Shown: piece after piece, positions 4,082 through 50,438 of the stretch
How the letters are laid out: every line of letters begins with the position of its first letter
How positions within the stretch are numbered: position 1 is the stretch's first letter
DNA from: a phage
Assembly (NCBI GenBank): GCA_012401045.1
Contig: GCA_012401045.1_4704.2
Strand: one strand, 5' to 3'
Length of the DNA stretch: 64,000 nucleotides
Made by a program: the position numbers and the translations under genes
Notes under the pieces: model-generated
What the model saw: the letters and a program-made list of their open reading frames with translations, nothing else
What the model was told of the DNA's origin: nothing
Databases searched by the model: none

Positions 4082-4085
4082 AAAC

Positions 4086-15752: not shown

Positions 15753-15762
15753 AGAGATTAAA

Positions 15763-16656: not shown

Positions 16657-16797
16657 TTTCTACCTCTATGGTTGTTACATCACTCTCAAAAGATGTAAGT
16701 GTTTACAGAAATAAGTATATTTTATATTAATGTAAATAATATGGAGAACGACTCCGAATCTCCTTTTCGACCATCAAAAATCAGAGGACACACAATC

Positions 16798-17340: not shown

Positions 17341-17539
17341 TAAGCACATAGAGCAATAGTATGGGTTTTGTACAGCTCGGCTATTGCTCTTCTACAATTT
17401 GGTTGTAACAATCTGCGTGGTTGCACGCTTATCTTTCTCATTGAGCGCTTCGTATGAAGCGTGGTGTTGAAAGGGTTGTGGATCTCCTCAAGCGGCCAGG
17501 GACCCAGACCAACCTGAATAAACACGAACACCTGTTAAG

Positions 17540-17571
17540 CCCCTCCTCATCCGTTATTGGGTGAGGAGGGG
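17540..17571 (+). terminator. GC-rich hairpin terminator (CCCCTCCTCA...TGAGGAGGGG) followed by TCTTATACGTCTTTATG
   Basis: 10-bp stem, 11-nt loop, T-rich tail, downstream of the 16798-17340 gene. Confidence 0.5.
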
Positions 17572-17634
17572 TCTTATACGTCTTTATGCGTTCCGTTCGT
17601 TCTGGAGCGTTTTAGAACGGTTTACGACAGGGTT

Positions 17635-18270
17635 TTATTCAACACTGAAACCGTTCAAACAGATAGCTTCGTAACGCTTACGTTCACGACGTTTACGCGC
17701 CTGCCAACCGTAAATGAACTTCTCGTCTTTCTCACGACGTTCCGCTAATTCGATGTAATAGGTGCTCTGCATGTCCAGCATTGCATCGATGAGATAATCC
17801 TTACCGGTTGCGCCACGCTTAGCGATATAGGCATCAAGAGCCGCCAGTGATTTGGGGCCCATTGCGCCATCAGCATCAATATCTTTCCAGTAAGTTTGGC
17901 GGTTGTTCATGACGTTCAGATAACGCTGGAGGTTCTTAACTGCGACTGATTTGCCTGCGTTGATACCCAGGTCAAAGAGACGGTCAGCTAAAAACACAGA
18001 ACGTTTCATGACTTCATCAAGCTTCATCTTATCCCAGAAGTGGGCCTTGTAGATAAAGAACGCCATTTCCGTGGTAAGGTTACGCATGTTACCGTTCCAG
18101 CCGAATTTCGTTTTCAGCGTGGTTTTGTATTGATCAGCAAGTGCTTGCGTAATGCCGTGGTTTGTACATTTTCCGCTGTCGTCTGGGTCATCAACATACC
18201 CGCCTTCAACATCGGTTTTGTCGCGAATGATGAATTCGCAGGTAAAATCTTTTTCAGTAATCTTAGCCAT
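17635..18270 (-). CDS. endolysin, GH108-type lysozyme with C-terminal peptidoglycan-binding domain
   Basis: EGGYVDDPDDSGKCTNHGIT motif, YKAHFWD and DGAMGPKSLAAL segments collinear with GH108/PG_binding_3 proteins; ATG with GAGGAG SD. Confidence 0.8.
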   Translation of the reverse strand: MAKITEKDFTCEFIIRDKTDVEGGYVDDPDDSGKCTNHGITQALADQYKTTLKTKFGWNGNMRNLTTEMAFFIYKAHFWDKMKLDEVMKRSVFLADRLFDLGINAGKSVAVKNLQRYLNVMNNRQTYWKDIDADGAMGPKSLAALDAYIAKRGATGKDYLIDAMLDMQSTYYIELAERREKDEKFIYGWQARKRRERKRYEAICLNGFSVE

Positions 18271-18396: not shown

Positions 18397-20445
18397 TCAA
18401 ATACCTTTGGTTCCTTTCACGTGATGTGCAATTTCTTCAATCATTGCACGCAGGGCACGAAGCTGTTGGTCGTGTTCGTACCAACCGCCTAATAGAACCC
18501 CGCTATACACCATGGTGTCAAGACTTAACAGCCCTTTATCTGATACGTTGATCATTTCCGGGAACTGTTCTTGAACACGCTGTGCGATAACACCGATCTT
18601 CTCGACATCAGGATCGTAGTTGTGACGGAAACGGGCAAGCCCGCTGCGCGCCATTTCACGTAAACGTTCACTGAGAGATTCCGGATGATCTTTCAGATAA
18701 CGGATGTCGTGTTTACTGCGTTCATCCGAGCGGATGTATGCGTTAGGAACATCGATATTGCTGTTGAAGTACAGCGCACTACCACCGCCTGCAGAGTTCC
18801 CCCAATAGAAGCGTGTGATCTCACCGCCACCATTTTCCGTGATGATGACATGTTTACCTAAACGCGTACCACCGTTACCATCAACGAAGACCAGTTTGTT
18901 TCCGCTGTAAGAACCCCAGAACAAGCGTGTATCGATGATGTGTGTTGCAGCGAGACGGGCGTTACGTGGTGTAGAATACACGGTGTTCACATCTTGCTGT
19001 GCATGCGCATCGGAAGCGATACCGTAGTTCTGTACGTTACCCAATCCTACCTGCGCTTTTGTAACAGCATGAGGGTTATCCCGGCGGTTAGCGTGAGCGT
19101 TAACCAGATCACCCGCTAATTTCTGGATTGCCCAGTTGGTAGACTGTGGCGTCATGTAACGGTTAGTTGCAGAACCACCTTGCGCTTCAGCTTGGTTAGC
19201 GGTTGGATAGTTCTCAACGCTCCCTAACCCTACTTGTGCTTTAGACACTTGGTGTGGGTTATTCTTGTCAGCGATGTGTGCATTCAGCGGAACTAACGCG
19301 AAGGTCTCAATGGACGCTTTGGTTGTGTTCGGTGCCATTAATCGGTTAGCTGCAACACCGGCACGCGCTTCTTCTTCAGACGCCATTGGGTAGTCTTGCA
19401 CATTCCCTAACCCAACCTGTGCTTTGGTCACCCTGTGTGGGTTGTTATAATCGGCTTTATGCGCATTAAGCGGAATCAATGCGAATTGTTCGATCGCGGC
19501 AACGGTACGTAGCGGCGTCATGAAACGGTTGTTCGCTGTTCCGGCTTTCGCCTCATCATCCGAAGCGGTCGGGAAGTTATCAACGTTCCCAAGGTTAACC
19601 TGTGCTTTGGTGACGCTGTGTGGGTTATCCCGGCGGTTAGCATGCGCGTCGACTAGATCGCCCGCCAGTTTAGCAATCGCCCAGCCAACCGTTTGTGCGG
19701 TCATGTAACGGTCAGGTGCAGTACCGGCTTCTGCCTCCGCCTTGTTTGCGGTAGGATAGTTCTGTACGTTACCTAGTCCGACTTGGGCTTTTGTTACTTC
19801 GTGCGGGTTATCGGTACGGTTAGCATGCGCGTAATGCAGATCGGTCAGATCTTTATCCGCCGCTTGCATGTCTTTGCGTAGCTGATCGATTGCCGCCCAG
19901 AGACGGTTATCGGACGCAGCATCACCGATAAGTATTGCGGCTTTTAACGAATAGATCGCTAAGCAAAGATGTTCGGTACCGTAAATAGCACTAACGTGGT
20001 GGATGTGTGGTTCAGGCGGATAGAGTTCCGGTTTGTTCTTGATGTCGTCCCAGTTGATCGGACGATCGTCAAGTTTGAGTTCTTCGATAGCCTGATATAA
20101 CGCGTCAATAAGACTTACGTAAACACCACCGATGATACGATAGTCGTTAATTAACGTCCCCTCGATATCATCGTTGATGATGGCGATCGCCGCACAGATT
20201 TCTTTACCTGCGTAAAGCGTCGCATCCTGATACAAGAAGATGGGTTTATAATCCACGCCTCGTACCAGTGTCTTACCGGTAAGCTTTTCAGTGATGACCA
20301 GACTTTCGGTAAAGAACGGTCCGCCATCAAGGGCGTAACATTTATTCTCGGTTCGTGGAACGGTATGCTCTTCACCAACGATGTGGTTGCTGGCGAGTGT
20401 ACCGGTCCAGTCCTCGGGGTACTTCAGGGTAATTGGTGTCGACAT
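18397..20445 (-). CDS. tail fibre protein with C-terminal intramolecular chaperone (S74-type autoproteolytic) domain
   Basis: Five to six repeats of NPHxVTKAQVGLGNVxNY (phage tail fibre repeat type); C-terminal SDERSKHD motif with downstream chaperone-like region. Confidence 0.75.
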   Translation of the reverse strand: MSTPITLKYPEDWTGTLASNHIVGEEHTVPRTENKCYALDGGPFFTESLVITEKLTGKTLVRGVDYKPIFLYQDATLYAGKEICAAIAIINDDIEGTLINDYRIIGGVYVSLIDALYQAIEELKLDDRPINWDDIKNKPELYPPEPHIHHVSAIYGTEHLCLAIYSLKAAILIGDAASDNRLWAAIDQLRKDMQAADKDLTDLHYAHANRTDNPHEVTKAQVGLGNVQNYPTANKAEAEAGTAPDRYMTAQTVGWAIAKLAGDLVDAHANRRDNPHSVTKAQVNLGNVDNFPTASDDEAKAGTANNRFMTPLRTVAAIEQFALIPLNAHKADYNNPHRVTKAQVGLGNVQDYPMASEEEARAGVAANRLMAPNTTKASIETFALVPLNAHIADKNNPHQVSKAQVGLGSVENYPTANQAEAQGGSATNRYMTPQSTNWAIQKLAGDLVNAHANRRDNPHAVTKAQVGLGNVQNYGIASDAHAQQDVNTVYSTPRNARLAATHIIDTRLFWGSYSGNKLVFVDGNGGTRLGKHVIITENGGGEITRFYWGNSAGGGSALYFNSNIDVPNAYIRSDERSKHDIRYLKDHPESLSERLREMARSGLARFRHNYDPDVEKIGVIAQRVQEQFPEMINVSDKGLLSLDTMVYSGVLLGGWYEHDQQLRALRAMIEEIAHHVKGTKGI

Positions 20446-20458: not shown

Positions 20459-23056
20459 TTATAACGTGACTGTACCTAATTTGGTTGTCTTATTGAGATT
20501 AATGACAGAGATCTGGGTATCGCTGGTCGTAATCGTTCCGATATTAACGCGCTGTCCTTTATCATCTTCTTGCTTGTAGATGGTTAACTCCAGTTCTAAC
20601 TGGTCGCCATTAGGAACAACGGAAACGTACCATGTTTTATTACCTGGTGAACTATTATAGTCTTTTAGGTTATAATGGCCTTTAGGTAAGGTCATGGCCT
20701 TACCGGCAAACAAACATGAAATGTCCTCGTTGATATAAACGTCGAAACCGGAAGAAGCGATGACTGTTGAGGCCATTATTCGAGACGCGACGATACCACG
20801 ATTATAGTCGTCGATTGTGGTACCTATGACATTGAATACTTGCCCCCCGTTACCCATAATGGTCGATTCGCTAGTGTTTACGTAGCCGATACCCCAAGTC
20901 GGATGAATGTTCCAGCGGTACCCACTGTTTTGTAAATACGTATACAAGTCTTCATAGGCCGCATTCACCCAACTACCATCACTTTTTCGTCCAGCCCTAA
21001 ATTGGAATGTGTTGCTATTTCCAGATGTTCCTCGGCCAAGAGGGACATGTCCCGCCACCAACCAACCATCTGTACTTTGCATATACGCGAACGAACCGTA
21101 CGCTCTGTTATCGGCCCAAATATTCACGGTATCAACACGTTCAACGTAGGCGATCACCTTTTGTACGCCGGTTATAGCGATTGAACCCTTGCGTGCCGAC
21201 ACATTAACTTCAGCAATTACGACACCCATTTTCCGCTGGCTGCTGTTAAATCCCAATACGACCATTAAACACGGTGCGTTTGTTGTTTCTGGAGGAATCG
21301 TTATCGATTGTTTCCAGTCGGTGATTCCGCTGAGTTTCGTTCCAGTATATGCGTTCCAGACGGTTTGTCCAGCCGATTTCAGATTCTGTTCAGAAATAGA
21401 AATGGCCTCGCCCTCAGGGATTAACGTGTCGTAATTGAGACCAATGTTGCTGGATAGACGAAGGTCGTTTAAGTAAGATCCGCTGAGTGTGACGTTACCG
21501 TTACGATAAATTGTCAAGAATGGCGCAGCCAGGGAGTTTAATACCGTAAAGTTACTCGATGGCATGAAACCATAGACATCGATGCCATTACCGTGGTAAT
21601 GGTAGTTTGTCCAACTACCTTGATAACTTACGGTACGTGCATCGTAGTGGCCTTGTCCAAGACCGCTGCTGGATAACGTGTATATCTTGGTTGCTGATAG
21701 AAATGCGAGATATCCATGCGCTGCCAGAGCTCCAACTACCCTGTCTTTTATCTTTAACCAAGCTGAAGTATACAACGTACTGTCGGGATTCATTTTGGCT
21801 ATTTCATCGTAAGCTGTGCCTGCGAAGTTTCCGATAGTGTACGTACGTATATCCGGCTGTCCGTTATTGTCGTTCTGTACAGCAATTACTTGCCCAGAAT
21901 CATTGATATCGATATTACCGATACAGTTGTGAGCCCCCCACACCCAATATCCATCTTTATAATTGGATTCTCCTTGTGTAAATGTCGACGGTCCTCGCCA
22001 CGCGATGCCGTTCGATTCGGCGTAGTAGGTAGCTTGTCCCGATCCTGGATTCATGGCGTATCTGTTATTGGTCGGGTCAAAATCGATGTAAAAATGATGC
22101 ATTCCTTGACGTTGACGGTTGTCCCGATCATTTGTCCACCACGACGAACCGACCAGAATTCGCGCCTTACCATTTTTTACAGTGGACCATAAACGTATTG
22201 CGGCGCGCCAGACGATTTGACCGATCCCGTTGGACGGGAAACTATTCGTACTGATGCTGTTGCAGACAACGAGCTCGCTGCTGTTGTTTATTTGAGTCCC
22301 TTCAATTGTAACGCCGTTTATGTTAGTAATCAGTGTTGCCGATACACTACCCCCTGTAGGGGCGATAGAGGAACGTTGAACGGTGTAAATTTTTAGTGAT
22401 AATTTATAGCCGCTCCGAATAGCTATACCAATGTAAATAGTTCCGTTAATTTCCCAACAACAAACATCGGGCATTGTTTCTTTGAAATCGGATAAAGCAC
22501 CGTCGATATACATCGCAACGTGTTTACTGGCGTCGAATGTGCCGTCCGTTAACGCGATGAACATTTTGGCATTATTACCGTTGATATCAGCCGCTAATCC
22601 GAGTAGTATGTTGTTCTGATGACAGTAGATGGCTTTAGGTGCTAGATCCAACATAGCTGGTTGGTACTGTCGGCTTGTTGGTATTACGCTAGTAACTGCA
22701 CCATTCTGATCCGTTTTACAAATAACGTAATATACACCGTGTATGATGCTGTTTGTCGCTGACCTCAGTAGGACGATCGTCCCGTCAGATTCACGACATA
22801 TACCGTAATGGCGATAGTCGGTGATTAAACCGATAGCGCCATCGGCCGAACCTTCGATTGCCAGAGGAAAATAACTTTGGTCCCCAACCTGTTCGATATC
22901 GGTTGCGCCAATATCGATGTATTTTTCCATCTCAGTGTTGAACTCAGCGGTACTGTAGGCACCGAGATCGCTCGCCTTTAGTCCCGTTGGGTTGTCACGA
23001 CTGGCGATACGCGTAGTAACGCTACTCACCAGTTCGCTGAACTTTTTCATTGTCAT
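20459..23056 (-). CDS. tail fibre or baseplate-associated protein (865 aa)
   Basis: Embedded in fibre module; N-terminus shares a SEL...DNP...A(A/S) motif with the two downstream small proteins. Confidence 0.5.
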   Translation of the reverse strand: MTMKKFSELVSSVTTRIASRDNPTGLKASDLGAYSTAEFNTEMEKYIDIGATDIEQVGDQSYFPLAIEGSADGAIGLITDYRHYGICRESDGTIVLLRSATNSIIHGVYYVICKTDQNGAVTSVIPTSRQYQPAMLDLAPKAIYCHQNNILLGLAADINGNNAKMFIALTDGTFDASKHVAMYIDGALSDFKETMPDVCCWEINGTIYIGIAIRSGYKLSLKIYTVQRSSIAPTGGSVSATLITNINGVTIEGTQINNSSELVVCNSISTNSFPSNGIGQIVWRAAIRLWSTVKNGKARILVGSSWWTNDRDNRQRQGMHHFYIDFDPTNNRYAMNPGSGQATYYAESNGIAWRGPSTFTQGESNYKDGYWVWGAHNCIGNIDINDSGQVIAVQNDNNGQPDIRTYTIGNFAGTAYDEIAKMNPDSTLYTSAWLKIKDRVVGALAAHGYLAFLSATKIYTLSSSGLGQGHYDARTVSYQGSWTNYHYHGNGIDVYGFMPSSNFTVLNSLAAPFLTIYRNGNVTLSGSYLNDLRLSSNIGLNYDTLIPEGEAISISEQNLKSAGQTVWNAYTGTKLSGITDWKQSITIPPETTNAPCLMVVLGFNSSQRKMGVVIAEVNVSARKGSIAITGVQKVIAYVERVDTVNIWADNRAYGSFAYMQSTDGWLVAGHVPLGRGTSGNSNTFQFRAGRKSDGSWVNAAYEDLYTYLQNSGYRWNIHPTWGIGYVNTSESTIMGNGGQVFNVIGTTIDDYNRGIVASRIMASTVIASSGFDVYINEDISCLFAGKAMTLPKGHYNLKDYNSSPGNKTWYVSVVPNGDQLELELTIYKQEDDKGQRVNIGTITTSDTQISVINLNKTTKLGTVTL

Positions 23057-24125: not shown

Positions 24126-26279
24126 TTATAACGTTTCGAAGTCGGTTGCTTTGATAACCGCGTTGAAGTTGGCAAGGAATTCCTTAAGCAGTGCTTGGAA
24201 GACATCACGAAACGCTGTGTTCGTCTGCAAGCTGGTTAAATAATCGTTCTTAAGGTAATCGCTCAGCTTACCGATCTTCTGCATCTTCTCGCCGTCTTGG
24301 TTCTCTCCAGGTTCTTGGCTGTTGATGTTAACCCATTTGATCCCTTCGAGATCGCCATCGGCAAGGAAGTTGGCGGGTGTCTCATCGTCGTTCAGGATTT
24401 TAATCGTATCACTGGATTCAATGCCACCGTAAGCTTCCAGAAGCTGGTTGACTGTTAGCTTATTGGTGTTGATTGAACCATTGACACCATCGATACCGAT
24501 GCCTGCACCTGTGATGGATGTCGCCGAAAGATCGATCGGTCCGGTTAACTTACCACCGTTGATCGGTAACGCACCAACTTGCTCAGCGGTGTGTGTATGG
24601 TCAGCTAACGCCGCAAACGCCACGATAGACTTATATGTCGAATACGGCGTCATATACGCTGATTGGTTGGTGTTGTCAGCCGCTTCAGTATCGGTAGCGA
24701 CATTAAAGTTCTGCACGTTGCTGAGACCGACCTGCACCTTCGTTACTTCATGCGGGTTGTTCTTATTGACAACGTGTGCTGCAAAACCATCACCAGCTAA
24801 AGCAGTGATTGCCGCTTTTGTCGCAGCCGGTGTCATATAGCGGTTGGTTGCTTCACCCGTTTGCGCCTCTTCGTCGGAAGCAACAGGATAGTTCTCAACG
24901 CTTCCCAAACCGACTTGGGCTTTTGTTACTTGGTGTGGGTTTTCGGTATTCGCAATATGACTACTGAACCCTTGACCCGCCAGTTGCTCGATTGCGTAAC
25001 GAACAAGTATTGGTGTCATGTACTTGTTGTTAACTTGACCATCGATAGCTTCTTGGGTGGTGGCAACCCCGAAGTTTTGCACGCTCCCCAACCCAACTTG
25101 CGCTTTTGTAACAGCATGAGGGTTATTGGTGTTACCGATGTGATCGGTAACCGTTGGGGTGATTAATCCTGCGATAGCGGCTGCCGTGGTCGCAGGGGTC
25201 ATGTATTTATCGTTAGCAACACCCGCAGCAGCTTCTACGTTAGATGCTACACCGTAGTTCAATACATTTCCTAACCCAACCTGCGCCTTGGTTACCCCGT
25301 GGGGGTTGTTCTTGTCTCCGGTATGGGTTGTCAACGTAGCGTTAACGTTATCGATACGCGTGCTTAAGCTATCAGTGATTGCTTTGATTGCGGCTCGTAC
25401 ACCCGCTGGTGTTGTGTACAGATCTGTGGCCGTACCGGTAATGGTTGTATTACTATCGGCTACACCGTAGTTCTCAACGTTTCCGAGTCCCACCTGGGCT
25501 TTCGTTACCTTGTGTGGGTTGTTGTAGTTGCTGATGTGCGCAGCAGCACTATCACCACTCAGGTTAGCGATCATTTTACGCGTCATCGCCAACGTCATGT
25601 ACAGATTTTCACCGATGGTTTCCAGATCGCTCTCGGTCGCCGTTGTGAAGTTCTGAACATTTCCTAACCCAACTTGAGCCTTGGTTACGCCGTGGGGGTT
25701 ATCGCGACGATTCTCGTGCTGCAGCAATGCAGTCATTGCTTTATTGAACCCTTCTTCAAGCGGTTCTTTCAATGATTCGATTGCAGCCACCACATCGTCC
25801 CACGTCATTGTGTCGGTTTCGACATTATGTTGGTGGTTGATTGGCGGGAATACGGAAGGAACGTCAGCAACCTTTTCCCAGAACGTAACGCGAGGGTCGT
25901 AAAGGTTGTTGGCTAAAACGTTAAGAATTTGTTGTTGATCAAGTGTAAACTCACCCCCCAGTGAATAGTAGTTCAGTTGCAACTGTCCACTGAATGCGGT
26001 GTCCAACAGCATGATGGAACCGTATAATTCCAGGCCGGTCAGCGCAGCCATGGCACGGAAGGGGTGAGTGCATAAAAAGTCAACGCCTTCTTCCAGATAC
26101 GCGTTTGTTTCAGGGTTGTAGATCTTTAACCCATTGCGAAAATATGGCGCGTATTTAGGAACGAGAAAGTTAAATCCGGTCCCCGTGGAAGGACGGACAG
26201 TGACGAGTTCTTCTGGAACCCATGCGCCATCCAAATTCCCCTGCGGGTTATACGGAAGGCGTTTAATTTCATCTGTCAT
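24126..26279 (-). CDS. tail fibre protein (717 aa)
   Basis: About eight repeats of NPH[GAQE]VTKAQVGLGNVxN[FY]; ATG with AAAGGG SD. Confidence 0.7.
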   Translation of the reverse strand: MTDEIKRLPYNPQGNLDGAWVPEELVTVRPSTGTGFNFLVPKYAPYFRNGLKIYNPETNAYLEEGVDFLCTHPFRAMAALTGLELYGSIMLLDTAFSGQLQLNYYSLGGEFTLDQQQILNVLANNLYDPRVTFWEKVADVPSVFPPINHQHNVETDTMTWDDVVAAIESLKEPLEEGFNKAMTALLQHENRRDNPHGVTKAQVGLGNVQNFTTATESDLETIGENLYMTLAMTRKMIANLSGDSAAAHISNYNNPHKVTKAQVGLGNVENYGVADSNTTITGTATDLYTTPAGVRAAIKAITDSLSTRIDNVNATLTTHTGDKNNPHGVTKAQVGLGNVLNYGVASNVEAAAGVANDKYMTPATTAAAIAGLITPTVTDHIGNTNNPHAVTKAQVGLGSVQNFGVATTQEAIDGQVNNKYMTPILVRYAIEQLAGQGFSSHIANTENPHQVTKAQVGLGSVENYPVASDEEAQTGEATNRYMTPAATKAAITALAGDGFAAHVVNKNNPHEVTKVQVGLSNVQNFNVATDTEAADNTNQSAYMTPYSTYKSIVAFAALADHTHTAEQVGALPINGGKLTGPIDLSATSITGAGIGIDGVNGSINTNKLTVNQLLEAYGGIESSDTIKILNDDETPANFLADGDLEGIKWVNINSQEPGENQDGEKMQKIGKLSDYLKNDYLTSLQTNTAFRDVFQALLKEFLANFNAVIKATDFETL

Positions 26280-26383: not shown

Positions 26384-27664
26384 ATGTATACATTGGTAAA
26401 AACTTACGGGTTACCCGTAGGTTCTGGCACGGCCTGGACAGCGCTTGAGGCGGGTGAAAGTGTCCTGAGTACGTTGTTCTCAACGTATCAAAAACTCAAG
26501 ATCCAGGTCCACGAAAGCTATGCTGACCAGCAACAAGTTATTGATCTGTACACATTTCAATCCGAGCTTCAAAACAGCAGCGATACGCTCAATGCGTGGT
26601 TGAAAGCGAAATCGGATGCGCATACCAACCTTCGTGGACAGCCTGGCGAGCTGTCGATTAAAACCCACAAGCTTTATTGTCACGACGCTATTACTGTAGG
26701 CTTTCTCCCTAAAGTCGGTAATAGTGGCTATCATCCGAGCAACGCGATCCCTGAGTCGGAACGCACTGATATCCTGTTGACGAAAGCGAATACGAATTAC
26801 GAAAATATCGGCAAACACTGCTTGTTCACCGTAGGCGGTTATGTTCATCCTCACGTCTACGGTAAAGACGTCGGTGTCTATATCCAGGGTGGGTTCAAGA
26901 CGGCACAGCGCAGCCAAGAAAACGATATCGGCATGATTGATTTTAGCCGTATCGGGAGTTTGGAAATCCATGCTATCACAGAAGAGATGATTGCTGATTC
27001 CACGAAGCTCTTGCCGTATAAGGACGAGATGTACTTGCGGTTACCGCGCAAGGTCGCCGAAGATGAAACCGTCGCGCTGGTGTTCGGGGGATATTTACAT
27101 CTTCTTGACGATTGTTACACGATCGTTAGCGACACGACAGCGAAAATAAACTGCATTAACATGTTTCTCTATGAACGGTACTTCCGTTCCCGTAAATACC
27201 TTGATCTAACATCTCTTGGTATTCTGTTGAACGAAGAAGACCCACAGTCCGACATTGTTGCCAATCGTTTATTGTCCGATAAAGCATTAAAAGCGTGGGT
27301 GACGCATCCTTGCAGTTTCTGGGTGTATATCAAAGCAACATCAATTCAGGTTACGCAAGAACCTTTACCACGAAGCGGTGTACCGGGACAGTATTTCTTA
27401 GGTAAGAAACCGGAAGGATTGATTCGGGCCGATCTCGGTGAGTTACCCGCTTACGTGCAGACCTATGAAAAACCGTTATGGGTACTTCACTCGCGCTGGG
27501 GACTTCGTAAGAACATGTTGTTTGAAAATACGTTGTACAAACATACGCGCGTTAAGCGACTTAACGATACGCCTTATCTTCACCAGGTCTGGTTGGAAAC
27601 GCATGCGACGTTGCAGACAGTACACAAGCTCGAATTGATCGATTCCAGTCAGAAAAACAAATAA
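26384..27664 (+). CDS. hypothetical protein (426 aa)
   Basis: ATG with AAGGGGG SD; divergent from fibre module; followed by conserved hairpin. Confidence 0.5.
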   Translation: MYTLVKTYGLPVGSGTAWTALEAGESVLSTLFSTYQKLKIQVHESYADQQQVIDLYTFQSELQNSSDTLNAWLKAKSDAHTNLRGQPGELSIKTHKLYCHDAITVGFLPKVGNSGYHPSNAIPESERTDILLTKANTNYENIGKHCLFTVGGYVHPHVYGKDVGVYIQGGFKTAQRSQENDIGMIDFSRIGSLEIHAITEEMIADSTKLLPYKDEMYLRLPRKVAEDETVALVFGGYLHLLDDCYTIVSDTTAKINCINMFLYERYFRSRKYLDLTSLGILLNEEDPQSDIVANRLLSDKALKAWVTHPCSFWVYIKATSIQVTQEPLPRSGVPGQYFLGKKPEGLIRADLGELPAYVQTYEKPLWVLHSRWGLRKNMLFENTLYKHTRVKRLNDTPYLHQVWLETHATLQTVHKLELIDSSQKNK

Positions 27665-27674
27665 CCAAACATAA

Positions 27675-27706
27675 CCCTCCTCCAACCCGTAAGGGAAGGA
27701 GGAGGG
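27675..27706. terminator. conserved GC-rich hairpin family copy (CCCTCCTCC-AACCC-GTAA-GGGAA-GGAGGAGGG)
   Basis: Between convergent genes; GNRA-type GTAA loop closed by CCC/GGG. Confidence 0.5.
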
Positions 27707-27715
27707 AATATGCTG

Positions 27716-28621
27716 TTATGCTACATATAACGTCAGATAACCGTCGATGAGCGTATTCATCACACTGAGTTGAAGTACGACAGCTTTACTAACATCTGTA
27801 CGTACACCGAACGGTAGTGTTTTGAATTGCTCTGGATCGGCTATTACTTGCGCATTCTGCAAGTTGAGCGGTCCAGGCATTGCTGACAATACCCAGCGAT
27901 CGTTGACCATAAGGCCGTCGATCTCTTCAGAGAGACCCAATTGCAGTGCGTTCATTTCTGCGATTAGTGCCTCCGATTGCGTATCGCCTGAGGTTAGCGT
28001 ATACCCATCGGTAAGCGATGCCAGAACACCAGCAGATACGAACCAGTTGTACGAAACAATAGCGCCTGGGAGTTTACTGCTATCTCGATCGATGATATAA
28101 TTCAACCCAGCCAACATATTGTTGCGAATGAGGTTGTTGAGGTCGTTATGTCCTGAAGTTAACTCAACAAGTAATTGACCAACCCATACTTGGTTACCAG
28201 GTTTAGGTGTTATCGCAACATGTATCGGTGATTTGGATTTATCCAGATCCGCGTCGACGATCTCGGTTTTATTGAGAAGGATACCGTACGTTGATGCTAA
28301 GACAGGTAATATCTCAGAGACCTTGGTTAGTGTATCTAAGGTTTCGATCTCGATGGGCCAGCGGTGCTGTCCACCAGGCCAAATACCCAGTTTACCAAGA
28401 TCGACGCGGTTATAATAGATGTCGACAGAGTTCACCAGCCCCGAACCCGGTTGGGGATGCACGGTTAACTTGCTGTTACGCTTGTACCCTGTGCTTTCAG
28501 AAGCCTCACCGATAACCAGTTTATCCAGCGTTACGCCTCGAGCATCGAAATCGCTATGCTTTCGAATCAGCCGAAAGAGGATTTCTTTCGATTCTAACCC
28601 TAGGATTTCACTGTACTCCAT
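27716..28621 (-). CDS. paralogous virion-type protein family member (301 aa)
   Basis: Contains the IYYNRVDLGKL ... STYGILL family domain. Confidence 0.5.
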   Translation of the reverse strand: MEYSEILGLESKEILFRLIRKHSDFDARGVTLDKLVIGEASESTGYKRNSKLTVHPQPGSGLVNSVDIYYNRVDLGKLGIWPGGQHRWPIEIETLDTLTKVSEILPVLASTYGILLNKTEIVDADLDKSKSPIHVAITPKPGNQVWVGQLLVELTSGHNDLNNLIRNNMLAGLNYIIDRDSSKLPGAIVSYNWFVSAGVLASLTDGYTLTSGDTQSEALIAEMNALQLGLSEEIDGLMVNDRWVLSAMPGPLNLQNAQVIADPEQFKTLPFGVRTDVSKAVVLQLSVMNTLIDGYLTLYVA

Positions 28622-31394: not shown

Positions 31395-33875
31395 TTAAAC
31401 GTCCTCGATAGGCAAAGGTTTAACAATCAAACGATTGAGCGGATTCGATAGACGCATACTGATAGGCTTATACGCAACATGATTCGTCTCACTTAGAGCC
31501 ACTGATCTGAAACGACCGTTCAACTGTTTGTAAATCGGTTCTATCCAGAGACCTCGAAGATCACGTTTACGGAAACGTTGTTCGAACGGTTTGATTGGGG
31601 TTACGGTTAACCCACGCAACGACTCTGACGGTAAACGCTCACGAAGGTCGCGTGGTGCCCGACCTGGGAACGGTGCAAGCCACAAACCATCGAGCGGATT
31701 TTTACGGAAACGCAACGAGACAGGATCGCTAATGACTTGTGCCCAATATTGCGTACTGAATCGAACCGTTTGGGTATTCTCGTAACCGCTACAATCACAC
31801 CAGGTTGGTTTCGGAGGCGCTTCCAAACTTTCAACCGCTGATTCACGCCAGTTCGTCATCGGGTTGTTATCATGCACGAATTTGATAACTTCCGTAGCCT
31901 GGTTATCCGTATCATGAACGTTTGCCTGTGCCCAGTCTTCCCACAGTTCTTCACTACCACTTACTAAACTCGAACCGAGACGAACGGCGATTTTGTTTAG
32001 TGGTTTGATTGGGTCACTGTTGATTGTCTGGATAAAATGGATGGTGTAACTGCTCAATGTCTTAAGCAGCTGCAGCATTCCGTATTGAATATCCTTAAGA
32101 CTGGTGACATCTTCCAAATCCTGGCCGGTGGCCTTTGTGAAGATATCGAGAGCCAGAATACCCGCCTCTTCTTGACTGATTGCGTCAAGCTCCCAATCCA
32201 TCGATAAGAACCATTCCTTGTAAAGCTGTCCAATACCGAAGTCGACACCAACATCCATGTAGAAGTTTTCAACGATGGCTTCAGCCATGCCTCGAGCTTG
32301 ATAATGTTCTTGGAGCTGATACATGAACTGATGACGACGCCAGCCCTGGTAGATCTCGGTAACGGCGCTCAGAAACTCTTCAGTACTGACGACAGCACGC
32401 AGCGTCACTTGCTTATCCAAACACCACCAGATCAGTTTATCGGGAATGATAGCAGGATCGGTAATGCTACGGAGATGGTCGAATGTCGGTAGCGTTAACA
32501 CCCTGACGTGGTTAGCATGGATCTTAGGTACTTCAATCAGCGTCATGCCCATCGAATAGTTCAGCAAATACAAGAACAGCTTGTAGGCATCTTTCATCGA
32601 CATCGTCATGGTATCACCCGTCACCGGGTTGGTTGTCGTTAACCGTGACTGATACATGCCTATTGCGCTAAGATGAATCCATTCATTCAGCAGGAAATCA
32701 TACTTAGGATACAATTCACTGTCTGTAAGGTCTTCGGCTTCACTTTCCAACACCTTGGTCGTTAAGGTATTGTTGTCATGCATCGACATTTTCTCTATCG
32801 TGCGGTTAAGCTCGGTATAATACTCCGCTTCGTTATCCCGCGCTAGAGGGAACTGTTGCTGCATCACGGTGGTGACCTTACGTCTTACCGTGCCATTACC
32901 GACGATCTCTTGAAGGTTAAGCGGTTTACGCTCCATGTAAACTGCGGGTTTTAACGTCTGGGGTATCTCGGAAGCGTCTTGTTTGATCGAGAACGCACCG
33001 ATTGGAATCCCACGATCGGTTAATACCTTTTGAATGAGCTTATCGTAGTTTTCCGTTCTGCCCATGTTTCTTTCAACGTAAGCGATGTTACGATAGAACC
33101 AGAGCATTTGGGATTCGGTCATGTACCGCTTGAATCGATCAAGGCCTTGATGGCTTGCCAGATAACTCCAGATATGGAAGCTATGGGCATAATGGGTATG
33201 ACAGTTTTCCCAACGAATACCTTTTATCATCTCAGGTATTTGTGTGAATAGGATGGCGTATAGCGCAGGCCAATGAAGCATATCGACGCTCTCGTATGCC
33301 GGATGTTCCCAGCGTCTGAAGTAATCGTCGATTTCTTGCTGTAAACGTGGAATAAGATTGGCCTCGCGTGACTCAACCTCTTGTCTATCGTACCAGAGAA
33401 TCTCATGATTGCGTGCCGCAATTGCTTTCTCGATATCGATGGGGTTAAGGATACCCAAGATCAACATACGTTGTTCCGGGTACCGCGCAATTAAACGATT
33501 GAAATAATCTCCGCCATACGCGTATTCCCTTGCCGTCATGCGATGCCGTAACATGTTTTCCTTGGTGAACTCGATCTCTTCGAGCGTATCCAGGGAATTT
33601 ACGGTCATCATTGTCTGACAAGGATGATACTCGCCAGCGAGATTCATGTAGTATAACCACGTGCGTGGGTCGTCCCCGACGGCCATCTGGTAGACTTCGG
33701 AAACCTTGAGGTTTAACCGTTCTGCCGTGATGTCGCTTTTAATAATCAGGGTGTCCGTTAGACGCTGCACGCTTTCCGAATAAAGCTGATAGTCAGTGTT
33801 GGACACGATCGGTCCTCCAAGGAGCCAGTGTAAATGAACGATATAAATAAAGGGCGCGTCGCCCTCGAACGTCAA
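31395..33875 (-). CDS. large hypothetical protein (about 803-826 aa) with C-terminal RFRK...GLW repeats
   Basis: Track start is TTG at 33875; a GTG at 33806 with GGAGGA SD is the more likely start; internal repeat RFRKNPLDGLWLAPFP / RFRKRDLRGLWIEPIY. Confidence 0.5.
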   Translation of the reverse strand: MTFEGDAPFIYIVHLHWLLGGPIVSNTDYQLYSESVQRLTDTLIIKSDITAERLNLKVSEVYQMAVGDDPRTWLYYMNLAGEYHPCQTMMTVNSLDTLEEIEFTKENMLRHRMTAREYAYGGDYFNRLIARYPEQRMLILGILNPIDIEKAIAARNHEILWYDRQEVESREANLIPRLQQEIDDYFRRWEHPAYESVDMLHWPALYAILFTQIPEMIKGIRWENCHTHYAHSFHIWSYLASHQGLDRFKRYMTESQMLWFYRNIAYVERNMGRTENYDKLIQKVLTDRGIPIGAFSIKQDASEIPQTLKPAVYMERKPLNLQEIVGNGTVRRKVTTVMQQQFPLARDNEAEYYTELNRTIEKMSMHDNNTLTTKVLESEAEDLTDSELYPKYDFLLNEWIHLSAIGMYQSRLTTTNPVTGDTMTMSMKDAYKLFLYLLNYSMGMTLIEVPKIHANHVRVLTLPTFDHLRSITDPAIIPDKLIWWCLDKQVTLRAVVSTEEFLSAVTEIYQGWRRHQFMYQLQEHYQARGMAEAIVENFYMDVGVDFGIGQLYKEWFLSMDWELDAISQEEAGILALDIFTKATGQDLEDVTSLKDIQYGMLQLLKTLSSYTIHFIQTINSDPIKPLNKIAVRLGSSLVSGSEELWEDWAQANVHDTDNQATEVIKFVHDNNPMTNWRESAVESLEAPPKPTWCDCSGYENTQTVRFSTQYWAQVISDPVSLRFRKNPLDGLWLAPFPGRAPRDLRERLPSESLRGLTVTPIKPFEQRFRKRDLRGLWIEPIYKQLNGRFRSVALSETNHVAYKPISMRLSNPLNRLIVKPLPIEDV

Positions 33876-36743
33876 ATGAGTAATAATGACGTTGCGAAGG
33901 CACTCATGAACAAATTTGTCGCTCCTGCTCCGCAGTCACGTCTTTATAATACACGTGATGCGGAAGGAGCGAACGGTCGTTTCGGGTTAGTTGTTCCCGA
34001 CCAAATGACGATGAACACGGTTACGCGTGCGACCGCGACAAACATCGAGGATAATAAAAACATCCTCGAGTTGTTCCCTGAACTTAAACGTGTGATGCAG
34101 ATCTACGTTGCCGCGTTGACGAACCCTAACGATCTTAAGACGGTCGAGATGTTTATCGATAGCGAAGATTTCCCCGGCAGAGTCGCAGAAATCGTTCAGC
34201 CGATGATCGATACCATCGACACGCATTTTAAGAATATCTATAAAATAAAGACGCTTATCCCTCGTATCATCGAAGACGTCTTCTTTATCAAGGGCAGTTA
34301 TAACTTCGTTGTTCTGCCGGAAAGCACGCTCGACCGCGCCATTAATGGTAACGGTCAACTGAAACTTGAAGAATACGGATTTAAAGACAACCATTTTGCA
34401 AGTTGGGGGCTTCTAGGTAACGACAGTCGCAAACGCCACGAAAATCAATTACCTGCGACGGTTTCGATGGAAGATTATTTCTCGGGTGTTAATGAAACCA
34501 TACCGTACGATCCTGTTGTTCGCATAGACAGCATCAAGTTTACCAATACCCTGCTTCGCGATAAGGACGGTAAATTCATTGAAGCGAAGATCGATATTCC
34601 GGATATGGTTACGGTTGTCGATAACCCAGACATCCTCCGCATGCCTATTCTGCATCAACGTCGAGCAGCGACAGCAGTGCAGCGTGCGTTACGCGCAAAC
34701 ACGTTAGGAGGTAGTGGTTTGGTAACGCTGTCAGGCGATCCGACCCTAACCGCTAACCGACGTGAGCTGTCGCAAGAACAGGTTAACGAGATCTGGAATA
34801 AGCTCAACATCCAGCGCCACACCAAGGTATCGCCCGTTTACGCGCTGGCAACCCCAGATACGCTTGATCGTCAAAGCGTTGGCCATCCTGGCGTGATGCA
34901 TGTACCACCTGAGGCATTAGAACCCGTACATGCGCCCGGTGATCCTGAGAACCATATCGGGTATTTGGTTCAGTTGGATGAGTTTGGTTATCCAGTACGT
35001 TTGGTTGAAGATGCGGCGTATTACAAGCAGTTGGAAGGTCGGTTGTCGAAGATCACCGCAGATATCGCAGGTACGTCAAGCAACGGCATGGCGAGCGAGA
35101 TGATTGGTGCAGCCAAGAACATGATCCAGGGTACGTCATGTAATCAGGTAGACATGTCGGCCTTCGTATCATCGTACGAATCGCTGATGCAACGTTACAT
35201 TGTCGAACGTATCGTTAACGGTTATCTTGGCAGTGCGGTGGAGATCGGTGCGACATCATCGTTTTATCTGTCGATGCTTGCTCGTAGCCTCGCTCACAAG
35301 CAGACCCGTGTTTTGTTTATTCCTCGAGAGATGGTGACTTACATCGCTTATGAATACAACAAATACGGTATCGGTCGTTCGCTGCTTGAAAGTACGAAGA
35401 TGATCTCATCGCAACGAGCCATGCTCATGGTTCAAGAACTGATGGCGAAAATCAAAAGTTCGTTGAACTATACGACGCTAAGCGTAATGCTTGAAGACAC
35501 CGACAGAAACCCGGTCGATACCGTCGAACAAGCGCTGCATAGTTTCGCTCGTGTCTACCAGTCTGGTTTCCCTCTGGGTGAAACTAACCCGATGGATATC
35601 ATCAACGCGTACGAACGAAGCTCGATTCGATTGAAGGTTGAGGGGAATAACCCACGCTTCCCGAAATTGAATACAGACGTCAGTGTTGAGCAGCGTAACT
35701 ATCAGTCTCCTGATAATGAGCTGATGGATCGTTACCGTCGTGACCATTTCATGGGCTTGGGTGTGTCTCCGGAGATTATCGATACTTCCTACCAATCTGA
35801 ATTCGCAGCTTCTGTGATTACAGCTAACGCGATGCAAGAGAAACAGTTCACGGTTTGTCGTGAGGTGATCACGAATGGGTTATCGGACCACATCAAGAAA
35901 TATACGGCATACAGTCCCGTGTTGTTGACGTCGTTACGAAACACGGTTCGTGCGAACATGTCTAAGCTCTCCCAGGCACAATTGAAGCAGCTTTTTGGTA
36001 GCGATTTCGAAAACGGTGTTATCCGTAACGTTAACGCCTATCAGGAGATTGACGACCAATCAGCAACAATGGATCTGGATTACACTAAACCAGAAGTCCA
36101 GGAAGTTATTGCCGATGCTTATGTGTCCATGTTCTTAAACAGCCTGCGTGTGCGTTTACCGGATAGCAATGCCCGTCGCCTTGAAGATCAGGTACGTGAA
36201 TATAATCAGTACAAGGAAGCGATTACTGCGCAACTTGATGATTATTTAACGCCTGATTACGTCATGGGTCTGGGTGGGGTTGATGAAACAACGCTGCAGA
36301 TGATCCGCGCATGCATTATTGGTACCGCGATGCGTACGTGGGCAAAAGAGAACAACTTCAATCAGGAGCTGGCTGATCTCTTCAGTCTTGACGATAAGAA
36401 GAATGCCGTGCAAGATTGGAAACGTATGTCCATGGAACATATTGAAGTCATGGGTAAATGCATGGGTGATTTTGCATTGTATATTCAGAATCTGACGAAG
36501 AAGATTGAAGAGAAGATGGGAGCTCAAGCACAGGACGGTAGCGTTTCATCTGATGGTTCGTGGTCATCCGATTCAAGTAGCGATACCGGTTCTTCTGATG
36601 ACTTCGGTGGCGGTGACGATTTCGGAGATACCGATTTCGATACCGAAACGATGGAGGAAACCTCAACAGAAGAAACAACCACATCTGAGGATACGACGAC
36701 CGACACAACGTCAGAAGACGATACTTCAGGTGACATTGTCTAA
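33834..36743 (+). CDS. portal protein candidate (969 aa) with acidic Ser/Thr/Asp-rich C-terminal tail
   Basis: Size and highly acidic low-complexity C-terminus typical of portals; ATG with AAGGAG SD; not confirmed by search. Confidence 0.35.
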   Translation: MNDINKGRVALERQMSNNDVAKALMNKFVAPAPQSRLYNTRDAEGANGRFGLVVPDQMTMNTVTRATATNIEDNKNILELFPELKRVMQIYVAALTNPNDLKTVEMFIDSEDFPGRVAEIVQPMIDTIDTHFKNIYKIKTLIPRIIEDVFFIKGSYNFVVLPESTLDRAINGNGQLKLEEYGFKDNHFASWGLLGNDSRKRHENQLPATVSMEDYFSGVNETIPYDPVVRIDSIKFTNTLLRDKDGKFIEAKIDIPDMVTVVDNPDILRMPILHQRRAATAVQRALRANTLGGSGLVTLSGDPTLTANRRELSQEQVNEIWNKLNIQRHTKVSPVYALATPDTLDRQSVGHPGVMHVPPEALEPVHAPGDPENHIGYLVQLDEFGYPVRLVEDAAYYKQLEGRLSKITADIAGTSSNGMASEMIGAAKNMIQGTSCNQVDMSAFVSSYESLMQRYIVERIVNGYLGSAVEIGATSSFYLSMLARSLAHKQTRVLFIPREMVTYIAYEYNKYGIGRSLLESTKMISSQRAMLMVQELMAKIKSSLNYTTLSVMLEDTDRNPVDTVEQALHSFARVYQSGFPLGETNPMDIINAYERSSIRLKVEGNNPRFPKLNTDVSVEQRNYQSPDNELMDRYRRDHFMGLGVSPEIIDTSYQSEFAASVITANAMQEKQFTVCREVITNGLSDHIKKYTAYSPVLLTSLRNTVRANMSKLSQAQLKQLFGSDFENGVIRNVNAYQEIDDQSATMDLDYTKPEVQEVIADAYVSMFLNSLRVRLPDSNARRLEDQVREYNQYKEAITAQLDDYLTPDYVMGLGGVDETTLQMIRACIIGTAMRTWAKENNFNQELADLFSLDDKKNAVQDWKRMSMEHIEVMGKCMGDFALYIQNLTKKIEEKMGAQAQDGSVSSDGSWSSDSSSDTGSSDDFGGGDDFGDTDFDTETMEETSTEETTTSEDTTTDTTSEDDTSGDIV

Positions 36744-36773
36744 ACGGATGTAAAAAAAATAACACATAGTTAA

Positions 36774-36809
36774 CCTTCTCCCCAACCCGATGAGGGAAGG
36801 GGAGAAGGG
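36774..36809 (+). terminator. conserved GC-rich hairpin family variant followed by T-rich tract
   Basis: CCTTCTCCCC-AACCC-GATGA-GGGAA-GGGGAGAAGG then CTATGCGCTATTTAATTTATT. Confidence 0.5.
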
Positions 36810-36828
36810 CTATGCGCTATTTAATTTA

Positions 36829-37101
36829 TTACGAGGTTAACCACGATTCAATTGTGGTGAGTTTGCTTCTCAGTACGCGCCAACTAGGGTGTGGTGGGAT
36901 CACAGCGCCTTTGTCGATTACGGTTAGCTGAACCTGGTACTTCTGCTGCATACGCGCTACCGTGTCGCTTATCGAGAGGAAAAGCTGGTAACGTTCATAT
37001 GCCGTCAGTTCACTGTCCTGTTGAACTGCGTTGGCCGCTAACGTAATTTCGCGTAAGTCCTTTGCATCCACAGAGACGGTAATGAGTTTATATTGACTCA
37101 T
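36829..37101 (-). CDS. hypothetical small protein (90 aa)
   Basis: ORF convergent with the portal candidate. Confidence 0.4.
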   Translation of the reverse strand: MSQYKLITVSVDAKDLREITLAANAVQQDSELTAYERYQLFLSISDTVARMQQKYQVQLTVIDKGAVIPPHPSWRVLRSKLTTIESWLTS

Positions 37102-49535: not shown

Positions 49536-50438
49536 TTACTTAGCCTTTGAGTTATACGGACTAACATGTTGTTGTACTCGTTGGATTGTATCGTAGTACG
49601 GGTTAAGTTGATTGAACATGTTGTTGTGTGGGTGATAGCCATATGGCGCATTTTGCCTTGTTGGTGAGAAACCTTGTTGAGAAGGACGGTTTGAATTAAC
49701 CGCGAGTACGTAGTAAACCAAATTTTGGCGGTCGAACGTTCCTTCGTTTTTGAAGGTGTCGGCGTAGGCGCTTACCGCTGGAGCGAGCCTATCACCATCG
49801 GTTGTAATGATTGTGCCATCGGGATAAACTTCCCGAACGACGCACCATGTTCCGATGAGAACATCTTTGGGTGATGTATTACCGTATCCGGTTGTAACGG
49901 TAAGGTAAGTATCGAACCCTTCAGAACAACAAGGATGACGATAGATGGGTCCTGTCATTTCCAGTCTATCGGTGTCACCGCATTTCTCTATTGAGAGCGA
50001 TGATGTGTCGGTTTTGAAATTGTCAAATTCTTTCTTTAAGTCGATTACGGGTTCTTTCGTATAGTACTTCTTGATTGCTTTGACGTAAAGATCGGGAACG
50101 GTTGTCAGCAATCCGTTATACCTGATTCTCAGGTTTTCGAGTAATCCAAAGATGCTCGCGCATGCCTGTTCGCGAGGTTTTGTAAGATAAGAGATCCCCC
50201 CAGGAACGCTGGGATCTTTGAGAAAGAAGATTGCGTTATTGTCGTTGTGCGATGCGTTGAAGAAAACGATTGATTCGATATATACGGAGCATAGGCTGTC
50301 GTTGGCGTCGTCAGATAACACCCAGATGCACTCATCGGTCGTCTTGTTTAAAAGTTCTGTTTTGTCGACCAAACGTTGTTTCATTGCGAGGAAATGTGCC
50401 TGTTGTTCAGCGGATAATTCACGATAAATGGTGGTCAT
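49536..50438 (-). CDS. hypothetical protein (300 aa), paralog of 50524-51306
   Basis: Shared motif IY-x-HP-x-C ... YLT-x-T-x-G ... REVYPDG-x-I; ATG with AAGGAG SD. Confidence 0.5.
   Translation of the reverse strand: MTTIYRELSAEQQAHFLAMKQRLVDKTELLNKTTDECIWVLSDDANDSLCSVYIESIVFFNASHNDNNAIFFLKDPSVPGGISYLTKPREQACASIFGLLENLRIRYNGLLTTVPDLYVKAIKKYYTKEPVIDLKKEFDNFKTDTSSLSIEKCGDTDRLEMTGPIYRHPCCSEGFDTYLTVTTGYGNTSPKDVLIGTWCVVREVYPDGTIITTDGDRLAPAVSAYADTFKNEGTFDRQNLVYYVLAVNSNRPSQQGFSPTRQNAPYGYHPHNNMFNQLNPYYDTIQRVQQHVSPYNSKAK

Follow-up and report, generated by a model that had tools for sequence, protein, structure and literature searches.

The hairpin at 27675–27706 of the window (the whole 64,000-nucleotide stretch of phage DNA analysed here) is one of ten related hairpins that are probably transcription terminators, mostly two-way, of a Goslar-like chimallivirus and used by the phage's multisubunit RNA polymerases. 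Most likely, the elements in the window are the Goslarvirus version of a terminator type that occurs throughout the chimalliviruses and is already known. The positive evidence lies in the structure and covariation of the hairpins, their position relative to genes, the enrichment of a TATG tail and its link to the direction of transcription, their resemblance to experimentally mapped terminators of phages phiKZ and 201phi2-1, and inversions of the hairpin core between close relatives. From this evidence we infer that transcripts of the window phage end at the hairpins, and likewise how the tail would act.

Relationship of the Window to Phage Goslar

Sequence comparison gives the closest relative of the window. 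A 4-kb stretch around the 27675 copy is 97.4% identical to Escherichia phage vB_EcoM_Goslar (Goslar below), a nucleus-forming jumbo phage of E. coli in the family Chimalliviridae, and the window is collinear with Goslar positions ~66–62,357, barring a few divergent or replaced stretches. The Goslar record annotates several split genes for phiKZ-type RNA-polymerase beta/beta′ subunits, located beyond the limits of the window, and the presence of phiKZ-type virion and non-virion multisubunit RNA polymerases is read from the annotation of this ~97%-identical genome. A degenerate pattern of the hairpin core, searched against viral contigs, was too loose and returned mostly single chance matches, and it exposed two more Goslar-like metagenomic contigs, neither of them identical to the window. 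Hairpin cores were compared among four genomes, namely the window and three other Goslar-like genomes.

The sole difference in gene content from Goslar is a 1.8-kb replacement that ends at 51302, 118 nt from the hairpin at 51420; at this distance, a role of the hairpin as a mosaic junction is not supported. A search of the window for tRNA genes found none.

Members and Structure of the Hairpin Family

All nine hairpins that the first-pass annotation had located in the window are present. We trained a covariance model on 19 distinct family sequences; run on the window, it matched these nine loci and a tenth at 17540–17571 (full hairpin 17536–17576); there were no other matches in the window at E < 1, and none of the matches was inside a gene. 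The ten members, together with two unrelated hairpins that carry the same tail and one neighboring repeat, are as follows.

3442–3475, + strand: same putative terminator class with an unrelated hairpin, after gene 2597–3436 (+); GCCTGTCC-TTCG-GGGCAGGC then TTTTTATGCTGT.
4077–4128, unstranded: putative two-way terminator at the convergent junction 3680–4081 (+) / 4135–4776 (−); CATAA at 4077–4081 (holding the stop codon of the + gene), hairpin 4086–4117 (CATCCTCCC TT CCC TTAC GGG TT GGGAGGATG), tail TATGCCGT at 4121–4128; core an exact inversion of Goslar 4149–4180.
11164–11198, unstranded: putative two-way terminator of the second sub-type, junction 10057–11145 (+) / 11214–11603 (−); hairpin CCTCCTTCCC CGG CC TTGA CGG CTA GGGAAGGAGG; tails TATAG, not TATG, on both strands; counterpart annotated in Goslar as "putative transcriptional terminator", with the core exactly inverted relative to it.
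15714–15751, − strand: putative one-way terminator after 15763–16656 (−); hairpin 15720–15751; tail TTTATG on the − strand (15719–15714), + side without TATG; loop and core orientation unlike those in the three other Goslar-like genomes.
17536–17588, unstranded: tenth member, missed by the first-pass annotation, between 16699–17340 (+) and 17635–18270 (−); hairpin 17536–17576 with a CCCCTCCTCATCCGTTATTGGGTGAGGAGGGG core; TTTATG on the + strand (TATG at 17585–17588); ortholog at Goslar 17603–17637 annotated as a terminator.
27670–27716, unstranded: putative two-way terminator, junction 26384–27664 (+) / 27716–28621 (−), the copy from which this study started; CATAA at 27670–27674, hairpin 27675–27706, TATGCTGT at 27709–27716; counterpart at Goslar 27746–27777 annotated as a terminator.
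36765–36814, unstranded: putative two-way terminator, junction 33834–36743 (+) / 36829–37101 (−); hairpin 36774–36808 with the 5-nt loop GATGA; TATG at 36811–36814 (+) and CATA at 36765–36768 (TATG on the − strand).
43225–43267, − strand: putative terminator after the major capsid gene 43366–45588 (−); hairpin 43236–43267; tail TATGCCGT on the − strand (43232–43225); on that strand a continuous 14-bp stem with three G·U pairs and a GCAA loop.
48038–48075, unstranded: putative two-way terminator, junction 46314–48008 (+) / 48086–48412 (−); hairpin 48038–48069; tail TTTATG at 48070–48075, + strand only.
51410–51451, − strand: putative one-way terminator after 51456–52823 (−); hairpin 51420–51451; tail TTATGCTGT on the − strand (51418–51410).
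51385–51361, − strand: promoter-like repeat ~35 nt downstream of the 51420 hairpin.
56718–56753, unstranded: same putative terminator class with an unrelated palindromic hairpin, GCATAAA-GCCCACCC-CGAA-GGGCGGGC-TGTTTATGC; TTATGC tail on both strands.
62646–62689, − strand: putative terminator after 62694–63983 (−); hairpin 62652–62683, loop AACA on the + strand, as against GTAA at Goslar 61009–61040; TATG on both sides, at 62649–62646 (− strand) and 62686–62689 (+ strand).

Family members fold into a 9-bp pyrimidine/purine outer stem, a 2×2 internal loop, a CCC/GGG inner stem and a loop of 4–5 nt. A strict descriptor of this architecture (9-nt arm, 2 nt, CCC, 4–5-nt loop, GGG, 2 nt, 9-nt arm, and at least seven of the nine outer positions paired) is satisfied by eight copies in the window. 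The folding and covariance analysis that had been proposed as a check yielded stable folds and strong compensatory change across copies. Fold energies lie between −18 and −34 kcal/mol (z-scores relative to shuffles, −3 to −8), which places the hairpins among the most stable local folds of the 64-kb window. Across the 19 distinct copies, 96.5% of cells are paired and 10 of the 12 pairs show change on both sides, a level of covariation reached by none of 500 shuffles and not approached by any slid register. The compensated changes are almost all exchanges of C-G and U-A; therefore, the 5′ arm remains pyrimidine and the 3′ arm purine whichever strand is read. This polarity, pyrimidine-rich 5′ and purine-rich 3′, is also that of the phiKZ-type motif. 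In folding, the upstream CAUA(A) is able to pair with the downstream U(U)AUG, which lengthens the stem.

The copies had been described as near-identical, which is accurate for six or seven of them (79–100% identity) and not for those at 43236, 15720 and 11164. The first two have 63–67% identity to the reference (in one register), and the 11164 copy represents a second sub-type with the core CYRGCC-GTCAA-GGCYRG, of which Goslar has three copies. Similarly, the outer arm quoted for the family, CCTCCTCC, occurs literally only at 27675 and 48038, and other copies carry compensated C/T variants of it. The GTAA loop is found in five copies, as had been noted (three on the + strand, two on the − strand).

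Position Relative to Genes

Gene context was taken from the list of open reading frames, the Goslar annotation and manual inspection, and it bears out the earlier observation that the hairpins lie at gene 3′ ends, often between convergent genes. All six convergent junctions in the window have a family hairpin (4086, 11164, 17536, 27675, 36774, and 48038). The remaining four members (15720, 43236, 51420, and 62652) are located between tandem minus-strand genes, and the one at 43236 follows the major capsid gene. In most cases, the distance from hairpin to stop codon is 5–31 nt. Over the whole Goslar genome, a hairpin of the family or similar to it is found at ~18–19 of 20 convergent junctions. 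Of roughly 25 family sites in Goslar, the GenBank record marks just five, as putative terminators based on an ARNold prediction.

The TATG Tail

A TTTATG-like tract had been reported after the hairpins. This tail is real, and TATG is enriched directly after the stems: in the window it starts 1–5 nt past the stem on 13 of 20 sides, and in Goslar 35 of 52 sides have it, compared to ~3% of random 14-nt windows. The tail is often longer (TATGCYGT), and TATGCYG occurs directly after strong hairpins at 3468, 4121, 27709, 43232, 51417, and 56722. It is also linked to direction, since in Goslar TATG is present on 33 of 44 sides toward which a gene is transcribed vs. 2 of 8 other sides (Fisher p = 0.011). 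Gene-facing sides without it in the window include the − strand sides of 48038 and 17540 and both sides of 11164 (TATAG).

The same tail follows hairpins with UUCG-type loops that are unrelated to the family, at 3442–3475, 56718–56753 and several annotated Goslar terminators. It therefore belongs to the terminators of the phage generally, rather than to the hairpin family. T-runs are rare by comparison: only 3 of 20 window tails have at least five T in their first 8 nt. A scan for hairpins followed by T-runs flagged none of the ten family hairpins, in part because it demands an uninterrupted stem, and found no enrichment of terminator-like sites overall relative to shuffles. Given the few T-runs and the absence of flagged members, the hairpins are not textbook intrinsic terminators.

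The tail could also couple termination to restart, with TATG acting as the late promoter core of the non-virion polymerase and its G as position +1. Termination at the hairpin is compatible with such a role, which we consider rather unlikely. In phiKZ, the defining element of late promoters is T(−3)ATG(+1); transcription in vitro requires it, but TATG alone is insufficient for promoter activity (PMC4666361). On the transcribed side of all one-way sites (eight of eight in Goslar and four of four in the window), TATG precedes the next gene, and TTATGCGG-like sequences are also found ahead of the capsid gene, an expected location of late promoters. On the other hand, TATG is equally found on both sides of convergent junctions (25/36), where firing would produce only antisense RNA into the opposite gene, which argues against a mainly promoter role. 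Furthermore, a separate promoter-like repeat is located ~35 nt further downstream at 43236 and 51420, and the mapped 3′ end in 201phi2-1 is past TATG, so that there the motif is within the terminated RNA (PMC11512511).

Variation of the Hairpin Core

The conserved GNRA loop and AA/AA internal loop had been taken to suggest a fixed recognition site. That suggestion does not hold, as the core is inverted or replaced between close relatives. Between the window and Goslar, the 14–17-nt stretch enclosed by the arms is an exact reverse complement at 4086 and 11164; at 15720 it is inverted and has a new loop as well; at 62652 the loop is swapped (AACA vs. GTAA); and at 43236 one loop base differs, leaving a GNRA loop on the transcribed strand in both phages. 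The flanks of the changed cores are mostly 95–100% identical. Among the four genomes, the flip at 4086 is common to two lineages and the change at 15720 is unique to the window. Overall, 9.5% of positions differ in hairpins and 5.5% in flanks, and the differences in hairpins are multi-base events within the core. At one-way sites, the transcribed RNA usually has the UU / UNNY form and not AA / GNRA. Across genera, conservation of sequence is seen in the TATG(CYGT) tail and not in the hairpin core.

Flipping between the inverted arms, together with copying between sites, best explains why the cores are so uniform, as inferred from the four genomes. Recent spread of one element had been raised as a possibility at the outset; of this, shared descent or copying among sites is supported. 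The best explanation for the near-identity of copies is common descent with ongoing copying and flipping, which has no need for an exact loop sequence.

These results bear directly on a reading of the hairpins as RNA recognition tags, that is, as processing sites, protein-bound stabilizers of 3′ ends or signals for mRNA export from the phage nucleus, with the loops as contact surface. The AA-CCC-GTAA-GGG-AA core does recur in many copies, the strict pyrimidine/purine polarity of the arms is maintained via compensated changes, and mRNA export from the phage nucleus is unexplained, with no motif known for the RNA-binding protein ChmC (PMC11077065), all of which would suit a tag. We nevertheless find it distinctly improbable. 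The core is inverted or replaced among near-identical genomes while the site is retained, one-way sites mostly show the UU / UNNY version in the transcript, and other genera have unrelated hairpins, even with reversed arm polarity, at equivalent positions. Cross-linking peaks of ChmC in PhiPA3 are near start codons, not 3′ ends, and yielded no motif (PMC11077065). In the search of structured-RNA databases that had been recommended, no Rfam covariance model matched anywhere in the window at the gathering threshold, and a permissive scan of the ORF-free stretch 14880–15800 gave nothing meaningful.

RNA or DNA: Strand Bias and Dispersal

The hairpin after the capsid gene at 43236 has a fold energy of −28.5 kcal/mol on the transcribed strand and −18.5 kcal/mol on the other strand, where there are mismatches; the transcribed strand is ~10 kcal/mol more stable because of its G·U pairs. 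In Goslar, the transcribed strand folds better at seven of eight one-way sites. Together with the direction-linked tail, this strand-biased folding favors a role at the RNA level.

A palindrome might instead act in DNA, as a cruciform or a site for a dimeric protein in recombination, replication or packaging. The inverted repeats are perfect, the exact inversions between arms imply that the arms pair or template-switch in DNA at least occasionally, and covariation by itself cannot separate pairing in RNA from pairing in DNA. Such a role is nonetheless very improbable given the strict placement just past stop codons, the tie between the tail and the direction of incoming transcription, the G·U pairs of the capsid site (which work only in RNA of the transcribed strand), and the equivalents in relatives, which are experimentally mapped RNA 3′ ends (PMC10914365, PMC11512511).

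Slightly less probable still is a selfish or mobile palindromic repeat (REP- or MITE-like) that recently spread in the genome. Many near-identical copies are dispersed, with loops seemingly swapped among distant sites, as might be expected of such a repeat. However, Goslar has a copy at the matching position for every one of the ten sites in the window, without any difference in presence or absence, and the element is never within genes. Searches of host and species genomes indicate that it is not a generic host repeat: a BLAST search of 5,426 E. coli genomes with the hairpin found no match (the low-complexity filter may mask the arms), and the exact 18-nt core had 22 single matches among 185,579 species genomes, none of them enterobacterial and close in number to the roughly 17 that we estimate by chance for an 18-mer. 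The mobile-element reading was rejected on site occupancy in Goslar and these chance-level matches.

It is hardly credible that the GGAGG arm followed by ATG drives translation of small peptides: although GGAGG is 5–9 nt upstream of ATG on most sides, the resulting ORFs are 6–50 codons long and unrelated in sequence, the Shine-Dalgarno-like arm is locked in a stem of −20 to −30 kcal/mol, the TATG tail also follows hairpins without GGAGG, and the 201phi2-1 transcript ends at the ATG. The purine arm, pointed out earlier as a perfect Shine-Dalgarno mimic, thus has no coding consequence; its ATGs open only these mini-ORFs, and the tail is also found where no purine arm precedes it.

Proposed Mode of Termination

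We propose that, as the polymerase exits a gene, the nascent RNA would fold its pyrimidine-only 5′ arm and purine-only 3′ arm into a very stable hairpin. The short A/U-rich TATG(CYGT) tail directly after it would stand in for the classical U-run, and the transcript would end a few nucleotides past the stem. Being a near-perfect palindrome framed by CATA and TATG, the element could stop transcripts that arrive from either direction, and every convergent gene pair may have a hairpin because the same DNA would stop transcripts both ways. The suggestion of terminator-type behavior at gene 3′ ends is supported by gene context, by the tail and by the mapped counterparts in phiKZ and 201phi2-1. Factor-dependent termination, offered as one possibility, is not needed as a reading, because the 201phi2-1 counterparts stop the host polymerase in a reporter (PMC11512511).

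A more speculative idea, to which we give little weight, is that chimallivirus polymerases re-recognize TATG during elongation and pause with a 3′-terminal U in the RNA and G as the incoming nucleotide. In phiKZ, it is the core beta-like subunit GP123, and not a releasable sigma factor, that binds TATG on the non-template strand (PMC4666361, PMC12809450). A pause at TATG a few nucleotides past the hairpin may lead to release or to immediate restart. If this idea is true, one short DNA word would be both start and stop signal and would replace the U-run, and re-recognition would explain why the tail, and not the hairpin sequence, is kept from Pseudomonas to Xanthomonas to E. coli phages.

Implications

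The function of the elements is ordinary and their form tidy; the modest interest lies in the flipping of the core and in the start/stop identity of TATG. In practical terms, the sites amount to a working map of putative terminators in Goslar-type phages, which have become a main model of nucleus-forming phages in E. coli. They would mark the boundaries of transcription units and offer compact two-way insulator parts for engineering. Comparison across genera indicates that the conserved part of chimallivirus terminators is the CATA…TATG frame and not the hairpin, and this conservation hints at a testable link between promoter recognition and termination in chimallivirus polymerases. The core inversions show that flipping and copying, and not selection on loop sequence, can keep conserved hairpin loops of phage genomes alike.

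Comparison with Known Systems

No description of the Goslar hairpin family as such was found in the literature examined; a preprint with a Goslar RNA-seq time course reports neither 3′ ends nor motifs (bioRxiv 10.1101/2023.09.20.558163). The closest known system is the conserved terminator motif of phiKZ and 201phi2-1, determined by ONT-cappable-seq (Putzeys et al., 2024, PMC10914365; Poppeliers et al., 2024, PMC11512511). In phiKZ, 133 termination regions were mapped, 61 of them share 5′-BCCYCCCCHWWDGGGRRGGBYTTATKYYGT-3′ (a pyrimidine arm, a loop, a purine arm and TTAT), and six overlapping two-way termination sites were identified at convergent genes (PMC10914365). The same motif is present in 59 terminators of 201phi2-1, which has 15 two-way sites and in which motif combinations yield elongated stems; eight of its terminators stop transcription in vivo in a Pseudomonas reporter assay, where those of this motif type halt the host polymerase (PMC11512511).

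The window elements resemble this motif in being GC-rich stem-loops with a C/T-rich 5′ arm, a G/A-rich 3′ arm and an immediate TTATG(YYGT), often with CATAA upstream. They are likewise intergenic at gene 3′ ends, two-way at convergent genes, and present after the major capsid gene, in phages of the same virus family with the same type of phage-encoded polymerase. They differ in dimensions: the published motif has a stem of about 7–8 bp (about 7 bp in the motif as published) and a ~4-nt loop, whereas the Goslar type is a composite of 9 bp, a 2×2 internal loop, 3 bp and a tetraloop, 12 bp in all, and its stem-to-TATG spacing is 1–5 nt.

The capsid gene allows the comparison to be extended to other genera. 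The hairpin at 43236 corresponds in position to the validated capsid-gene terminator of 201phi2-1, an element of the form CATACG-GCCAGTCC-TTCG-GGACTGGC-TTTATG whose validated site, 132,419, is 8 nt past the stem. Five further phages have a CATA-hairpin-T(T)TATGC(C)G frame past the capsid gene (phiKZ, Xanthomonas phage RTH11, Klebsiella phage Eowyn, Erwinia phage Ea35-70 and Proteus phage 10), so that six other chimalliviruses in all, 201phi2-1 included, have the CATA-TATG frame at this position; Cronobacter phage CR5 has a plain T-run instead. Across genera, the capsid-gene hairpins are unrelated in sequence, and arm polarity is reversed in two. The family model, run on ~20–40 kb stretches of these seven jumbo phages (phiKZ, 201phi2-1, RTH11, Eowyn, Ea35-70, Proteus phage 10, and CR5), detected no composite hairpin there and gave marginal matches only.

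A second comparison is with classical Rho-independent terminators and with the bidirectional terminators of bacteria, which consist of an A-tract, a hairpin and a U-tract. The window elements share with them a stable hairpin right after the stop codon and a symmetric A/U-rich frame that is usable from both strands. Unlike them, they lack a U-run on 17 of 20 sides, and their tail is the specific TATG(CYGT), kept across phages whose hosts differ widely in base composition.

Phage T4 has intergenic C(UUCG)G hairpins, and promoter-plus-stem-loop cassettes (PeSL) are known from T4-type phages. These too are recurrent, unusually stable tetraloop hairpins between genes, and in two window cases, 43236 and 51420, a promoter-like repeat is found beside the hairpin (~35 nt downstream). 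The loop type is different, however, and in the window the hairpin precedes the promoter-like repeat. The difference in gene content from Goslar starts 118 nt from the hairpin, with no sign of cassette movement.

Small inversions of hairpin loops between short inverted repeats are known from chloroplast DNA and from quasi-palindrome template switching in bacteria. The core inversions described here are of the same kind, in that a 14–17-nt segment between 9–10-bp arms is exactly reverse-complemented and the flanks are unchanged. They differ in affecting a functional element at several sites of one virus, and in being accompanied by whole-loop replacements that resemble copying from other members of the family.

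Differences from the Goslar reference

A segment of about 1.8 kb in the window (49512-51302) stands where Escherichia phage vB_EcoM_Goslar (hereafter Goslar), a nucleus-forming jumbo phage of about 97% identity, has about 90 bp. The Goslar DNA it replaces takes in much of the 62-codon Goslar_00047, and the segment itself holds two ORFs:

49536..50438, minus strand, ORF in the replaced segment
50524..51306, minus strand, ORF in the replaced segment

This is a difference in gene content between genomes that are otherwise collinear. Megablast-level similarity to Goslar is also absent at 5485-6014, 14502-14847, 20758-22193, and 63182-63371, with the surrounding DNA 94–97% identical; the largest of these stretches (20758-22193) falls within an 865-codon gene (20459..23056). 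The Goslar record itself (MK327938) carries about 55 nt duplicated at both termini (Goslar coordinates 1-55 and 237253-237307), including a partial copy of the GC-rich family hairpin, read as a phage terminator, and its TTATGCCGT tail. The genome would then be circularly permuted, and the duplication resembles overlap left over from its assembly.

Repeat-array genes and an antisense ORF

Two large genes, annotated as YomR-like in Goslar, contain arrays of 183-nt (61-codon) repeats, copies of which share 60–86% identity both within each gene and across the two:

18397-20445, minus strand, YomR-like gene with repeat array
24126-26279, minus strand, YomR-like gene with repeat array

The Goslar annotation places a Peptidase_S74 domain in one of them.

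A 766-codon ORF (43291-45591, plus strand) lies antisense to the major capsid gene (43366-45588, minus strand). We rejected it as a gene: the capsid gene uses no TTA, CTA, or TCA codons, so in-phase antisense stops are absent and the frame stays open as a shadow of strong codon bias.

Promoter-like sequences

Matches to sigma-70-like promoters are depleted across the window (positions 1-64000), with 58 found vs. about 94 expected from shuffles (four segments summed), which is consistent with transcription independent of the host polymerase. A repeat of 16–25 nt, TAYATTACCTARGTGA, occurs four times vs. about 1.1 expected when up to three mismatches are allowed, and all four copies are exact:

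2488-2512, motif on minus strand
15020-15044, motif on minus strand
43178-43202, motif on minus strand
51361-51385, motif on minus strand

Every copy has a minus-strand gene start immediately downstream, and two of the four have a family hairpin about 35 nt upstream.

A terminator hairpin and a copy of this repeat bound a 0.8-kb stretch (14939-15762) that lacks any ORF of at least 60 codons, aligns poorly to Goslar, and contains a further strong hairpin (15578-15619). An Rfam search of the stretch returned no match; it is possibly a non-coding RNA or a decayed gene.

The TAYATTACCTARGTGA repeat is probably a phage promoter of the early or middle class. It resembles the promoter elements AAanTTACc / TATATTAC of the related phage phiKZ, in which TCTATATTACAG also lies past the capsid-gene terminator, at a spacing comparable to that between hairpin and repeat in the window.
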